From Escherichia phage vB_EcoM_G5211, in sequence record MK327947.1: 64,000 nucleotides of DNA, one strand, 5' to 3'. Below the pieces are notes generated by a model, which saw only the letters and a program-made list of their open reading frames with translations, had not been told where the DNA came from and searched no databases. Below, piece after piece: positions 21,613 through 27,782 of the stretch; the first letter of the stretch is position 1; each line of letters starts with the position of its first letter. The position numbers were made by a program, and so were the translations under genes.

Positions 21613-21825
21613 TTATAATGCACCATCGAGCAATTGCTCTAAGGTGTATCCTGAATAGTCTTTTTCAATCAGGATATATTTTCCTACTCGTTTAATACAA
21701 CCACGCATTTCAACGTATTCTGCGTAGTTGATGGTACGAGTTGTTCCATCTTCCAGTAATGCAGTACCGATTTCGTTAATGCGGTCATAAGTTACGTCGG
21801 TAATGATGATTTCGATGTTAGCCAT
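21613..21825 (-). CDS. small early hypothetical protein (70 aa)
   Basis: AAGGAG RBS; preceded by a promoter/stem-loop cassette. Confidence 0.6.
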   Translation of the reverse strand: MANIEIIITDVTYDRINEIGTALLEDGTTRTINYAEYVEMRGCIKRVGKYILIEKDYSGYTLEQLLDGAL

Positions 21826-21893
21826 TTGATACTCCTTAGTAGTTCGTTTCGGTATGGGTGTATTATGATATACACCCTCTGTTATGTCAACAA
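21826..21893 (-). promoter_or_regulatory. early promoter plus stem-loop cassette (PeSL-like)
   Basis: On the - strand: A-tract, TTGACA, palindrome GGGTGTAT..ATACACCC over a CATAAT -10, conserved leader CAUACCGAAACGA, then GGAG RBS. Confidence 0.6.
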
Positions 21894-21896
21894 CTT

Positions 21897-22076
21897 TTAG
21901 AACATTTTTGAAATTAATTCTGCTTTGATTTCGCAGAGAACATCTAAAGATTTCTCGTCACCCGCTTTTGCTGCTTCTGCTTGCATTTTTGAAATGGCTT
22001 CAATGTCAGTGCAATTATAAGCCGCTTGAACTTTAGCGATTGCGATGATTGCCGATTCGATGGTTAAGTGTTTCAT
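21897..22076 (-). CDS. small early hypothetical protein (59 aa), not in the ORF track
   Basis: ATG directly follows a cassette leader; translation MKHLTIESAIIAIAKVQAAYNCTDIEAISKMQ... Confidence 0.5.
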   Translation of the reverse strand: MKHLTIESAIIAIAKVQAAYNCTDIEAISKMQAEAAKAGDEKSLDVLCEIKAELISKMF

Positions 22077-22138
22077 GTTTGATTCTCCTTTCGTTTCGGT
22101 ATGTGTGCATTATAGGGGATCTCCGACCCCCCTGTCAA
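22077..22138 (-). promoter_or_regulatory. early promoter plus stem-loop cassette (PeSL-like)
   Basis: TTGACA-18-TATAAT with GGGGATC..GACCCC stem in the spacer. Confidence 0.6.
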
Positions 22139-22145
22139 CAACTTT

Positions 22146-22664
22146 TTAGTTATTTTTTAATTGCTCATCTTGCAATAGGGCAATCACATGCTGGCGATGT
22201 TCTTCCGATTGAGGAACACCGAAAAAGTTTGTTTTGTAGAAATACTCTAATCGGTCTTCTCGTGTGCTCTCTTCCATCATGATCGCGGGTAGTCCGAGAT
22301 TTCGGAAACGTCGCTTTTCTGCTGGCGTAAAATCACTGTAATACAACATAGAATCATCATTACCAGCAATGCTAAACTCATCATTCATGAAGGAGAATAT
22401 TGCGTTTAAACGCTGTTTACCGTCCACGATTTCGATCTCATAGCGAGAGCCATCATCAATCTTAGCCATTGCGATAGCACCAACCGGAAAATCATTAATC
22501 AGGTTTTCGATAAACATACGTTTGTTTTCGGTGTCCCATACCAAAGGACGCTGATAATCTGGGTTCATGTTGATATAGCCATCTTCTAACCATGCATCAT
22601 AAACAGAGATGACAAAGTTTTTAGTATTGGTATAGTAACGGCGTTTAGGCGTTAAACGGTTCAT
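22146..22664 (-). CDS. DUF262 / ParB-like (DGQQR-type) domain protein
   Basis: PDYQRPLVWD ... IVDGKQRLNAI matches the DUF262 N-terminal signature; internal ATG abuts the stop of the upstream ORF. Confidence 0.7.
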   Translation of the reverse strand: MNRLTPKRRYYTNTKNFVISVYDAWLEDGYINMNPDYQRPLVWDTENKRMFIENLINDFPVGAIAMAKIDDGSRYEIEIVDGKQRLNAIFSFMNDEFSIAGNDDSMLYYSDFTPAEKRRFRNLGLPAIMMEESTREDRLEYFYKTNFFGVPQSEEHRQHVIALLQDEQLKNN

Positions 22665-22665
22665 G

Positions 22666-22995
22666 TTATAGTCTCCTGAATGGATCATCACGTAAATCAA
22701 TATCTTTTAAGAACTCATCCCATGAATGGCGGATATTGTTCTTAATTCTCCAGATAAGCGCAGGGATTGAACGCTCTCCCATCTGGAAGTAAGGATCATA
22801 TGATCCGTATGCCCAATATGCTACTACAATTCCACAGTCAGCGCAATAGTATTCTATTTCACTTGCTGGCGACCAAAGTCCATCAATATGATCAGTGATC
22901 TTGCTTTCGATGTTATGACTATGACAATCAGGGCAACGGATGCAATGACCTTGTTTATCGTAATTTGACGTTAGAGAATACTTAAACAATCTCAT
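22666..22995 (-). CDS. zinc-ribbon (CxxC..CxxC) protein
   Basis: CIRCPDC .. CADCG cysteine pairs; start overlaps the stop of the methyltransferase-like gene by 1 nt. Confidence 0.65.
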   Translation of the reverse strand: MRLFKYSLTSNYDKQGHCIRCPDCHSHNIESKITDHIDGLWSPASEIEYYCADCGIVVAYWAYGSYDPYFQMGERSIPALIWRIKNNIRHSWDEFLKDIDLRDDPFRRL

Positions 22996-23711
22996 TATAG
23001 ATCCTTATTGGCTTCAAATACTGCCTTTGCGAATCCTCGCGGGGTAAGTGACCTGATAGTCTTTGTTCTGGTTCCTTTCCCGCCTAGCTTAGAATGCTGT
23101 TTACTGTACCCTTTATTAATCTGCAACGGTTTCTTTTCTGGCATTATAAAGCCTTGTCCGGTCCATAAGCAAGTCTTTTTCGGGTACATATCACGGGCGG
23201 CAATATACTCAGGAAACGTAGGATGCTTATCATCTTCCGGCAAATAACCGCCATATTCCCACGGATGGAACATGTAATCAGGCTTACGCCACATACTAGA
23301 GATAACGCTTACAGGATTCTCTATCATGTAGGGAACTCCTAGCCATTCACCCAAATAAGCGGTTATTTTAGCTGTCCGTACATCATGAACTTGAATCAAT
23401 GGTCCTTGTTCTCGTTTCTTTCGTTCAAAGTGTGCAGCGCCACTAACAGCTAAATTGGTGCACGGTGGGAATGCAAAGATAATATCCGGTTTCCCCCATT
23501 CAAGGTCCATTGCTCTTTCCAGCCAGTTCAAATCAATCCAGGTGTTTACATAAGTAATGTTTGGATGTTCAAATCTGGTATTATACTTTTTGTATGTACC
23601 GTGGTCGGCGTCATCCGCATTAAAGCAGACTACCTTATGACCTGCTTTAGCCCATTCTAGCCCCATTATCCCCGATCCGTCAAAGTTGCAGAATATTAAT
23701 TTTTGTTTCAT
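22995..23711 (-). CDS. SAM-dependent C5-cytosine-methyltransferase-like protein (238 aa)
   Basis: FDGSGIMG (motif I-like), FPPCTNLAVSG (PC motif IV-like), MIENPVS (ENV-like), SLTPRGFAKAV; AGGGTGG RBS. Confidence 0.6.
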   Translation of the reverse strand: MKQKLIFCNFDGSGIMGLEWAKAGHKVVCFNADDADHGTYKKYNTRFEHPNITYVNTWIDLNWLERAMDLEWGKPDIIFAFPPCTNLAVSGAAHFERKKREQGPLIQVHDVRTAKITAYLGEWLGVPYMIENPVSVISSMWRKPDYMFHPWEYGGYLPEDDKHPTFPEYIAARDMYPKKTCLWTGQGFIMPEKKPLQINKGYSKQHSKLGGKGTRTKTIRSLTPRGFAKAVFEANKDL

Positions 23712-23949
23712 ATACCACCCTTTAACCCAGCACAGATTTTAGTCGGTTCTTTACCGTGCCACATTAAGTAAAGTCCGTTAATGCGACCTTGTTTTGTGTG
23801 TGATTCTTTTCTAATCTTCTTATAGTGTCGTGCTTCCTCAACTTATTGTTTAGAATACCAATCATAAAGGAAGAGGCACAAAGGCCAACCATTAGCGGCC
23901 TTAATGCAGTTATTAAGAAATTCCTTATTGCGTTTAATTAATTTTCTTT

Positions 23950-24201
23950 TCACGCTACCCCCATTGGTTTGATAGTAACAGAATCTAAAAGACCTTTGTT
24001 AGCCAGTTCGCGGCAAGTTTTCAGATCCGCAACTTCCCAGCCAGCCGCAATCAGGTTATCAATCAGGCTGTTAGCAACTTCTTCGCTCATGAAAGAGCAC
24101 TGTTTGCCGATGGTGTAGCGCACACGCTGTAATTTCAGTTTACGGAAGCCTTTAACGTTCAGGTCTTTAGCGATTTTCTTTGCGGTTTCGATGTTAGCCA
24201 T
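23950..24201 (-). CDS. small early hypothetical protein (83 aa)
   Basis: AGGAGAA RBS behind a cassette. Confidence 0.6.
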   Translation of the reverse strand: MANIETAKKIAKDLNVKGFRKLKLQRVRYTIGKQCSFMSEEVANSLIDNLIAAGWEVADLKTCRELANKGLLDSVTIKPMGVA

Positions 24202-24270
24202 TGTTTGATTCTCCTAAGTGGTATCTCGTCTTGATGGTTGTATTGTAGGGGAGTTATCCTCCCCTGTCAA
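24202..24270 (-). promoter_or_regulatory. early promoter plus stem-loop cassette (PeSL-like)
   Basis: TTGACA; stem GGGGAG-ttatc-CTCCCC in the spacer. Confidence 0.55.
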
Positions 24271-24284
24271 CACTTTTTATAAAA

Positions 24285-24452
24285 TTATTTGTTAATTTCT
24301 GGTGCGTTGCTAGGATAGTAACCTTCTTTAACTCCGAGGTATTTCGCAACCATCCCTACAATCTTCTGTGCTACTACAATGTCAAATTTCAGATAATCTT
24401 CGCCGTGGGTTTCAATGATATATGCTTCACATGCTGCTTTAGTCTCGAACAT
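24285..24452 (-). CDS. small early protein (55 aa), paralog A of 27551..27718
   Basis: MFETKAACEAYIIETHGEDYLKFDIVVAQKIVGMVAKYLGVKEGYYPSNAPEINK; nearly identical to the 27551 copy. Confidence 0.5.
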   Translation of the reverse strand: MFETKAACEAYIIETHGEDYLKFDIVVAQKIVGMVAKYLGVKEGYYPSNAPEINK

Positions 24453-24514
24453 TTTGATTCTCCTATTTCGTTTCGGTATGTGTGTAGTATAGGGGATCTC
24501 CCGATCCCCGTCAA
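24453..24514 (-). promoter_or_regulatory. early promoter plus stem-loop cassette (PeSL-like)
   Basis: TTGACG-17-TATACT with GGGGATC-tccc-GATCCCC palindrome in the spacer. Confidence 0.6.
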
Positions 24515-24528
24515 CAACTTTTTTAAAA

Positions 24529-24810
24529 TTATTCGTGATTAGTTTCGATATTGTGCATTTTGCACCAGTTCAGCCAATCGCCCAGATCTTTATAGTTGAT
24601 GCTTTTATCTGCTGCCATCGTTTTTGTCTTGATACCCATATGTGCGTTATGAGTAAGCATTTTTACAGTGAACTCAATTTTATCGCCTTTAGCTTTAACA
24701 TCAACCAGTTTGGTCCACTGGCTACCAGCGCCGCGAATGTTCATACCAACGATGTTTCCGATGTATGCTTCTTTGTTTTTCAGGATTTCGGTTGCTTTGA
24801 TGAATTTCAT
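24529..24810 (-). CDS. small early hypothetical protein (93 aa)
   Basis: ATG behind a cassette. Confidence 0.6.
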   Translation of the reverse strand: MKFIKATEILKNKEAYIGNIVGMNIRGAGSQWTKLVDVKAKGDKIEFTVKMLTHNAHMGIKTKTMAADKSINYKDLGDWLNWCKMHNIETNHE

Positions 24811-24872
24811 TTTTGATTCTCCAGTTCGTTTCGGTATGGGTGTATTATGCTATGTTCTTACTTTGGTGTCAA
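24811..24872 (-). promoter_or_regulatory. early promoter cassette (PeSL-like)
   Basis: TTGACA-17-CATAAT plus conserved leader. Confidence 0.55.
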
Positions 24873-24880
24873 CAACTTTT

Positions 24881-25150
24881 TTAGATATTTTCAGAAATAA
24901 ATTTTAAAACTTGACGTAAATGTTTCTCATCTTTGATAGTCGCCGGAAGTTCTTCTTTTACTTCCTGTGCAAGATAGATATTTCCGTTCCAAGTGAAAGA
25001 TCCGTCTTTGTTTACGCGATAGCTGAACATCCACTCGCAATCATTTTCGATTTCATATACACACAGAAGGGTGTAATCGTTAAAGCTATTGATTTCAAGG
25101 TCGAAGCCGTGACGTTTTGCAAAGTTGGTAGTGGTTTTAGTCAGTGCCAT
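24881..25150 (-). CDS. small early hypothetical protein (89 aa)
   Basis: ATG behind a cassette. Confidence 0.6.
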   Translation of the reverse strand: MALTKTTTNFAKRHGFDLEINSFNDYTLLCVYEIENDCEWMFSYRVNKDGSFTWNGNIYLAQEVKEELPATIKDEKHLRQVLKFISENI

Positions 25151-27547: not shown

Positions 27548-27550
27548 CTA

Positions 27551-27718
27551 TTATTTGTTAATTTCTGGTGCGTTGCTTGGATAGTAACCTTCTTTAACAC
27601 CCAGATATTTTGCAACCATTCCGGTGATCTTCTGTGCTACTACGATATCGAATTTCAGGTAGTCTTCACCGTGTTTTGCTACAATGTATGCTTCGCATTC
27701 TGCTTTAGTCTGGAACAT
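27551..27718 (-). CDS. small early protein (55 aa), paralog B of 24285..24452
   Basis: MFQTKAECEAYIVAKHGEDYLKFDIVVAQKITGMVAKYLGVKEGYYPSNAPEINK. Confidence 0.5.
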   Translation of the reverse strand: MFQTKAECEAYIVAKHGEDYLKFDIVVAQKITGMVAKYLGVKEGYYPSNAPEINK

Positions 27719-27782
27719 TTTTGATTCTCCTATATCTCGTTGGTATGTGTGTATTATAGGGGATCTCCCGATCCCCTGTCAA
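27719..27782 (-). promoter_or_regulatory. early promoter plus stem-loop cassette (PeSL-like)
   Basis: TTGACA-18-TATAAT with GGGGATC-tccc-GATCCCC palindrome. Confidence 0.6.

Follow-up and report, generated by a model that had tools for sequence, protein, structure and literature searches.

The closest described counterpart of the locus analysed here is the 711-bp dcm gene of the Drexlerviridae phage K42, which was reported as the escape locus for the retron Ec86 (bioRxiv 10.1101/2023.08.16.553469). Expression of K42 dcm raised 5-methylcytosine (5mC) in the multicopy single-stranded DNA (msDNA), as determined by liquid chromatography coupled to mass spectrometry (LC-MS), whereas the C82A/E128A/K175A/K176A mutant did not, and mutation of the CCTGG motif of the msDNA abolished Ec86 defence; the CCWGG specificity of K42 Dcm was only inferred and not mapped, and K42 was found to be 95.4% identical to phage KarlJaspers/Bas06 (bioRxiv 10.1101/2023.08.16.553469). 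A second described system is the PeSL cassette of the phages RB49 and Phi1, in which a stem-loop terminator is joined to a strong early promoter of the sigma70-like type, both activities being shown experimentally, and which shuffles ORFans in hyperplastic regions (PMC2839356). Here, we analysed a stretch of 64,000 nucleotides of Escherichia phage vB_EcoM_G5211 (MK327947.1), in the following called the window, in which a preliminary description had pointed to three adjacent genes encoding a DUF262 protein (172 aa), a zinc-ribbon protein (109 aa) and a cytosine methyltransferase-like protein (238 aa). Our data suggest these three genes to be the distal part of a PeSL-driven five-gene early unit of an RB49-like Krischvirus, encoding a minimal orphan Dcm-like methyltransferase together with independent small accessory genes, a reading to which we assign a probability of roughly 0.7.

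The assignment of the 238-aa protein is supported by several lines of evidence. It matches the profile phrog_757, 'DNA methyltransferase', from end to end (E 3e-91), and its RB49 counterpart RB49p189 is annotated as DNA methyltransferase. The KarlJaspers (MZ501090) protein bas06_0055, annotated as 'Dcm-like C5 cytosine methyltransferase' (711 bp, 236 aa), is 56% identical over the full length (E 4e-93), and the residues C82, E128, K175 and K176 of the K42/KarlJaspers enzyme align with C84, E131, K178 and K179 of the window. An alignment of 43 homologues with 56-65% identity shows F10, G12, S13 and G14 of motif I (FDGSG) being at least 90% conserved and P82, P83 and C84 of motif IV as well as E131, N132 and P133 of motif VI being invariant, which confirms the methyltransferase motifs FDGSG, PPC and ENP noted before within only 238 residues. 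A C-terminal block, LGGK..TK.IRSLTPRGFA, is invariant or nearly so; together with the preceding loop of about 30 residues (185-215) it probably forms a minimal target-recognition region and motif X. Structure prediction yields a fold of the C5-methyltransferase type that is DNMT3-like, the structurally closest protein being the catalytic domain of DNMT3A/B, in which the recognition region is small as well. Compared to E. coli Dcm, M.HhaI and M.HaeIII (PF00145), the protein is about 90-230 residues shorter and lacks the large target-recognition domain.

Homologues of this protein are widespread: there are 7,321 database proteins, the 120 listed of them being about 220-260 aa long, and phrog_757-type homologues are present in 1,524 phage records including T1-like Drexlerviridae, 44-kb siphoviruses, rV5-like myoviruses and Klebsiella phages. 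The searches against Pfam, PHROG, PADLOC and NCBIfam revealed no nuclease domain in any of the five products of the unit, and no restriction-endonuclease gene for a type II restriction-modification system was found; NCBIfam gave no match for any of the five products, and sequence searches of the PDB with the methyltransferase and with the DUF262 protein gave none even at permissive E-values. The 238-aa protein belongs to a family in which C5 methylation of DNA has been demonstrated, for K42 Dcm, and its sequence suggests a minimal orphan Dcm-like C5-cytosine DNA methyltransferase that would itself transfer methyl groups. The K42/KarlJaspers Dcm shares with it the catalytic and binding residues, a similar size (236 vs 238 aa) and the predicted DNMT3-like fold; both genes are orphans without a restriction partner, each located in an early or accessory region of its genome. 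The two differ in their carriers, a 51-kb T1-like siphovirus vs a 164-kb T4-like myovirus, in the putative recognition loop (DNPGWA vs GYSKQHS) and in that the five-gene PeSL unit with DUF262 and zinc-ribbon neighbours exists only here.

The preliminary description had considered a cytosine methyltransferase unexpected, assuming a T-even phage with glucosylated hydroxymethylcytosine (HMC) in its DNA. This assumption does not hold. More than 50 published Krischvirus genomes, among them GoldenSnicker (98.6%), Phi1 and GEC-3S (98.4% each), JEP8, TB34 and RB49, match the 2.5 kb around the three genes with 97-98.6% identity. Judged by this similarity, the window derives from a Krischvirus, i.e. an RB49-like 'pseudo-T-even' phage. 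In RB49, which is devoid of dCMP hydroxymethylase and of the glucosyltransferase, the DNA has been described as unmodified, and the methyl-sensitive enzymes HpaII and NheI digest it (PMC4041780). The HMC genes are missing from Krischvirus and Pseudotevenvirus in general (PMC12115623), and high-performance liquid chromatography/mass spectrometry (HPLC/MS) of TB34 genomic DNA revealed canonical nucleosides only (PMC13390438). Since cytosine is unmodified in RB49-type DNA, a cytosine methyltransferase is not anomalous in this phage.

The composition of the window points in the same direction. Palindromes of 6 bp are strongly avoided in the 64 kb, with observed/expected counts of 0/26.6 for TCCGGA, 0/14 for AAGCTT, 0/12 for AGCGCT and 1/16.7 for GAATTC, and the observed/expected ratios of GGCC and CCWGG are 0.33 and 0.31 (22 CCWGG sites). 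This fits the pattern expected of unmodified DNA that is exposed to restriction and evades it by loss of sites. We also considered the depletion of CCWGG as a decay of 5mC by deamination. Such a footprint is not visible: CTAGG/CCTAG is at expectation, CTTGG/CCAAG is itself depleted and there is no compensating excess of CTWGG/CCWAG, so that the depletion looks like restriction-site avoidance and the deamination hypothesis was rejected.

The phages SAP and TB34 were reported as 99.96% identical, yet SAP is said to have glucosyl-hmC DNA and TB34 canonical DNA (PMC13390438). The coding sequences of the locus are identical in SAP and TB34, and the locus was therefore rejected as the cause of this difference. 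When the locus is aligned over 5.5 kb, the two phages differ in structure by a single tandem PeSL duplication of 79 bp in SAP (Table 1), apart from which there are single-base indels; it is unlikely that the duplication causes the difference in modification. A duplication of this kind could escape a comparison restricted to single-nucleotide polymorphisms. These data bear on a reading according to which the activity of the 238-aa protein would not simply be 5mC formation in DNA, the protein acting instead on RNA as DNMT2 does, transferring a carboxymethyl or hydroxymethyl C5 group or providing the entry point for the cytosine hypermodification reported for SAP. We regard this as very improbable: LC-MS detected 5mC in DNA as the product of the 56%-identical K42 enzyme, TB34 has canonical cytosines with the same coding sequence as SAP at the locus, RB49 DNA is cut by methyl-sensitive enzymes, and neither a TET nor a glycosyltransferase partner is encoded in the unit.

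The three open reading frames (ORFs) are present as proposed, occupying 22146-23711. The minus strand encodes every gene of the region, so that transcription runs from the methyltransferase via the zinc ribbon to the DUF262 gene, opposite to the order given in the preliminary description, which had also described overlapping start and stop codons. An overlap exists between the methyltransferase stop and the zinc-ribbon start, which have one base in common (TAATG), but not between the zinc-ribbon stop and the ATG of the DUF262 gene, which are one base apart (TAA-C-ATG). This tight packing is kept in at least 56 Krischvirus genomes. The promoter/stem-loop cassettes of about 80 nt reported for the neighbouring genes are real, as judged by a promoter scan and repeat families, and besides the two flanking the unit (Table 1) they recur at ~21830-21910, 24452-24533, 24810-24891 and further on. 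Neither the promoter scan nor the repeat families revealed a cassette between 22157 and 24201. Whereas the lack of an own cassette for the three genes thus stands, the 238-bp leader proposed in front of them (23712-23949) does not: it is filled by a gene, orf81, which is annotated and intact in six relatives, and orf83 follows directly behind the upstream PeSL, from which we deduce that the three genes are the distal part of a five-gene unit under one PeSL cassette. Such an arrangement is not confined to this locus, as multi-gene units exist nearby too; in GEC-3S five consecutive genes have no promoter between them.

Table 1. Positions and characteristics of the five genes, the flanking cassettes and the duplication found in SAP; positions refer to the window unless stated otherwise.
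Feature	Position	Strand	Characteristics
orf83, first gene of the unit	23950-24201	-	83 codons; phrog_14908, PHROG match E 2e-58
orf81	23708-23953	-	GTG start, 81 codons; phrog_7065, PHROG match E 4e-38
Methyltransferase	22995-23711	-	238 aa; FDGSG (10-14), PPC (Cys84), ENP (Glu131), conserved Lys178 and Lys179
Zinc-ribbon protein	22666-22995	-	109 aa; CxxCxxC ... CxxC, then WAYGxYxP; phrog_2993
DUF262 protein	22146-22664	-	172 aa from ATG 22664; PDYQRPLVWD, IVDGKQRL, NFFGVPQSEEH
PeSL cassette upstream of the unit	24202-24292	-	-35 TTGACA 24270-24265, -10 TACAAT 24247-24242; 11/12 promoter-scan match
Next PeSL cassette	22075-22145 (repeat unit ~22075-22156)	-	-35 TTGACA 22138-22133, stem-loop GGGGGGTCGGAGATCCCC (22116-22132), -10 TATAAT 22114-22109; 12/12 promoter-scan match
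79-bp PeSL tandem duplication	SAP OZ034687.1, directly downstream of the DUF262 gene, corresponding to window position 22077		not in TB34 or the window

The upstream cassette has a sigma70-type early promoter, whose hexamers enclose the stem-loop GGGGAGG..CCTCCCC, with a Shine-Dalgarno sequence behind it, and the equivalent promoter is annotated in GEC-3S. The next cassette belongs to the repeat families D1, D4 and D5; transcription of the five-gene unit probably terminates at its stem-loop, and a downstream ORF of 59 codons would be driven by its promoter, for which an equivalent is annotated in GEC-3S as well. Compared to the PeSLs of RB49/Phi1 (Arbiol et al. 2010, PMC2839356) the anatomy is the same, i.e. 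an AT-rich region, the -35 hexamer TTGACA, a G/C stem-loop, the -10 hexamer and a Shine-Dalgarno sequence, and nothing essential differs except that five genes instead of one lie between two PeSLs. A promoter-like site at 23683-23654 was disregarded, as the promoter-like matches of the region are fewer than expected from shuffling (7 vs 8.8).

Among the two genes following the methyltransferase, the one encoding the DUF262 protein is annotated in the relatives from the ATG equivalent to that of the window. The protein matches the Pfam family GmrSD_N/DUF262 above threshold (E 5e-20), and in defence databases it is matched best by the DUF262 portions of NsnA (E 1e-20) and PD-T4-2_A, a PADLOC 'REase_II' match being limited to the DUF262 part of the model (positions 29-145 of 372). 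The protein ends right after this domain, and searches against Pfam, PADLOC and NCBIfam revealed no second domain, no DUF1524 and no HNH-type nuclease, which agrees with the DUF262 signature without nuclease described previously. Close relatives are short too (160-177 aa, one of 282 aa), with YQR..VW, DGKQR and NFxGVPQSEEH being invariant. A word-indexed homologue search returned nine relatives of the DUF262 protein and one of the zinc-ribbon protein; tblastn finds DUF262 homologues in 319 records of phages, among them Pseudotevenvirus Lw1 as well as Slopekvirus-like phages of Klebsiella and Enterobacter and one P22-like phage, whose copy is located in the ea region next to abc1/abc2. The 172-aa protein is thus a complete stand-alone DUF262 domain of the ParB/Srx fold, a putative nucleoside triphosphate (NTP)-binding protein without nuclease. 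It shares with GmrSD, BrxU and SspE the fold and the motifs YQR..VW and DG(Q/K)QR of their N-terminal DUF262 domain; in contrast to these enzymes, which carry DUF1524 or another nuclease, it is nuclease-free, one third of the length and phage-encoded. Because no nuclease domain is present, it is not a GmrSD-type enzyme and cannot alone be a restriction enzyme. Most likely it is an NTP-binding ParB/Srx-type protein whose target would be DNA or a DUF262 enzyme of the host.

The zinc-ribbon protein matches phrog_2993 (E 5e-34), the Pfam zinc-ribbon matches being weak and below threshold (TFIIB ribbon, E 5.6e-4). An exhaustive HMMER search resulted in 164 representative clusters, nearly all of them stand-alone proteins of 55-140 aa with a CxxC...CxxC-WAYG core and none of them with an informative domain fusion; homologues are found, with no methyltransferase gene beside them, in Nonagvirus JenK1, Felixounavirus and others. 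One further reading was that of a methyltransferase split like M.AquI alpha/beta, with the zinc-ribbon protein supplying the motifs IX-X. This was rejected, since the methyltransferase has a conserved C-terminal block of its own and its homologues function and occur alone.

The three genes had been proposed to form a module, either as an anti-restriction decoy or as a modification unit, and we analysed the linkage at 79 non-Krischvirus viral loci with a methyltransferase homologue, covering up to 5 kb of flanking sequence per side. A DUF262 or zinc-ribbon homologue was found within 5 kb of the methyltransferase at 0 of the 79 loci using tblastn and profile hidden Markov models of both families. 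Reciprocally, no methyltransferase homologue lies near the short DUF262 homologues of Lw1, the P22-like phage and metagenomic phage contigs or near the zinc-ribbon homologue of JenK1. The linkage is lineage-specific, being confined to one genus, and these comparisons do not support a functional module of three genes; as the locus is 92-99% identical within this genus, the linkage says little on a selection for co-function. Three independent accessory genes in one transcription unit are the simplest reading in a PeSL field that shuffles ORFans as blocks.

ParB/DUF262-type proteins pair with DNA-modification enzymes, as seen for DndB, DpdB and ParB-methyltransferase fusions, and the three genes might by likeness to these be a DNA-modification module, in which the DUF262 ParB/Srx NTPase loads or regulates a methyltransferase with minimal recognition and the zinc ribbon is an adaptor or regulator. 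The very short recognition loop of the methyltransferase and the gaps or overlaps of at most one base, kept in at least 56 Krischvirus genomes, speak for such a module. We nevertheless consider it quite unlikely, as the methyltransferase family does without either partner at all 79 loci analysed outside Krischvirus, the K42 homologue is active when expressed alone from a plasmid, the short DUF262 and zinc-ribbon homologues occur elsewhere without a methyltransferase, and conservation within one genus at such a high nucleotide identity is a weak sign of selected linkage.

Alternatively, the DUF262 protein, with the motifs it shares with the host enzymes, might be an anti-defence decoy mimicking the regulatory NTPase of host GmrSD, BrxU or SspE and poisoning their assembly or activation, thereby shielding DNA which the phage's own methyltransferase has turned into a type IV target. 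We judge this to be improbable: neither experiments nor genomic context support an inhibition, the DUF262 family is not linked to methyltransferases elsewhere, and the NTP-binding motif, being conserved, speaks for an enzyme and against an inert mimic. Moreover, TB34 is already insensitive to BrxU, its DNA being unmodified (PMC13390438). A further idea is that the short DUF262 proteins represent a new class of phage effectors, either dominant-negative inhibitors of host DUF262 defences (GmrSD/BrxU, SspE, DndI, NsnA, PD-T4-2) or an NTP-dependent DNA clamp aiding the methyltransferase, owing to which Krischvirus could carry the methyltransferase safely or effectively; this has, in our view, a small chance of being correct.

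Several observations weigh against a minimal Dcm-like methyltransferase accompanied by independent genes. Of the two protein families suggested in the preliminary description, DUF262 is matched above threshold, but PF00145 is not: the 238-aa protein scores 15.2 bits against a gathering cut-off of 22 (E 0.014), with residues 10-100 only being matched. The putative recognition loop reads GYSKQHSKLGGK here and DNPGWAKTGGK in the K42/KarlJaspers subtype. No methylation was detected in the virion DNA of Krischvirus phages by the published HPLC/MS of TB34 and the HpaII/NheI digestion of RB49. Finally, the tight packing of the three genes in at least 56 genomes is compatible with co-function, and a partnership specific to this lineage is not disproved by the lack of linkage in other phages. 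Regarding the loop, the sequence difference suggests that the target site of the 238-aa enzyme may differ from that of K42 Dcm. Regarding the virion DNA, the TB34 proteins at the locus are 98-99% identical to those of the window, and the TB34 and RB49 data together exclude global methylation as well as methylation of CCGG. Full methylation of CCWGG, with 22 sites per 64 kb, is by our estimate probably too rare for detection by HPLC, and methylation of a rare site is compatible with the data.

The five-gene unit with an orphan methyltransferase and independent accessory genes supports a model according to which, early in infection, host RNA polymerase would start at the PeSL promoter (24270-24242) in the hyperplastic early region and produce one translationally packed transcript comprising orf83, orf81 (cut by a nonsense codon), the methyltransferase, the zinc ribbon and DUF262, ending at the stem-loop 22116-22132. 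The methyltransferase would use S-adenosylmethionine bound via motif I, Cys84 attacking C6 of the flipped-out cytosine and Glu131 of motif VI protonating N3, so that a methyl group is added at C5 of the cytosine within a short target site, which would be recognised by a short loop resembling the small target-recognition region of DNMT3. Replicating phage DNA would be methylated and, incidentally, host or retron DNA. The likely benefit is that the otherwise unmodified phage DNA would be shielded from methylation-sensitive restriction at the target site, at a cost known in relatives, in which the retron Ec86 senses the methyltransferase activity. The zinc-ribbon and DUF262 genes were probably set beside the methyltransferase by PeSL shuffling and would not be obligate partners of it; nucleotide binding by the DUF262 protein probably occurs via its DGKQR motif, its target presumably being DNA or a host protein that contains DUF262.

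The locus as such is already known, as more than 50 published Krischvirus genomes contain it, in part with the annotation 'DNA methyltransferase' or 'DUF262 domain protein', and the finding matters little as it stands, the methyltransferase family already having a characterised member. The remaining interest lies in the DUF262 family, as stand-alone phage DUF262 proteins could be anti-defence factors, and in the target site of the loop subtype. Krischvirus phages are used in therapy collections, and a Dcm-like enzyme, which in other phages is a trigger of Ec86, predicts a host-range determinant that can be tested.

Of the two genes preceding the methyltransferase, orf83 is a Krischvirus-specific ORFan annotated in all relatives checked, with a weak PADLOC match to the C-terminal region of the defence reverse transcriptase RT_UG35 (positions 722-785, E 2.6e-5). 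The start codon of orf81 overlaps the orf83 stop by 4 nt (GTGA), and its own stop overlaps the methyltransferase ATG (ATGA). The gene is intact and annotated in six of six relatives inspected, i.e. RB49 (RB49p189.1), GEC-3S (BN201_0195), JEP8 (JEP8_040), GoldenSnicker, TB34 and SAP. Alignment to GEC-3S and TB34 and translation show that in the window it is cut at codon 37 by an isolate-specific TCA→TAA change (23843-23845); no record of the phage collection matches the window identically over this part. As the nonsense codon lies about 130 nt before the methyltransferase start, it may lower methyltransferase expression if translation is coupled.

Further observations concern the surroundings of the unit. 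A direct repeat of 172 nt with 85% identity (24284-24455 and 27550-27721) comprises a small ORF and its cassette, suggesting a duplicated PeSL-ORFan unit inside the hyperplastic region. The matches of the Krischvirus genomes ELT3 (PQ368571.1) and ELT4 (OM803178.1) to window positions 21800-24300 span about 3.4 kb vs 2.5 kb elsewhere, which implies an insertion of about 0.9 kb within this span. Two cassettes downstream of the unit lies an ORF of 70 aa (21613-21825, minus strand; phrog_10679), of which homologues with 42-50% identity are found near a Dcm-like gene in several T1-like phages, a loose recurrence including KarlJaspers, in which the homologue is located about 3 kb from dcm.

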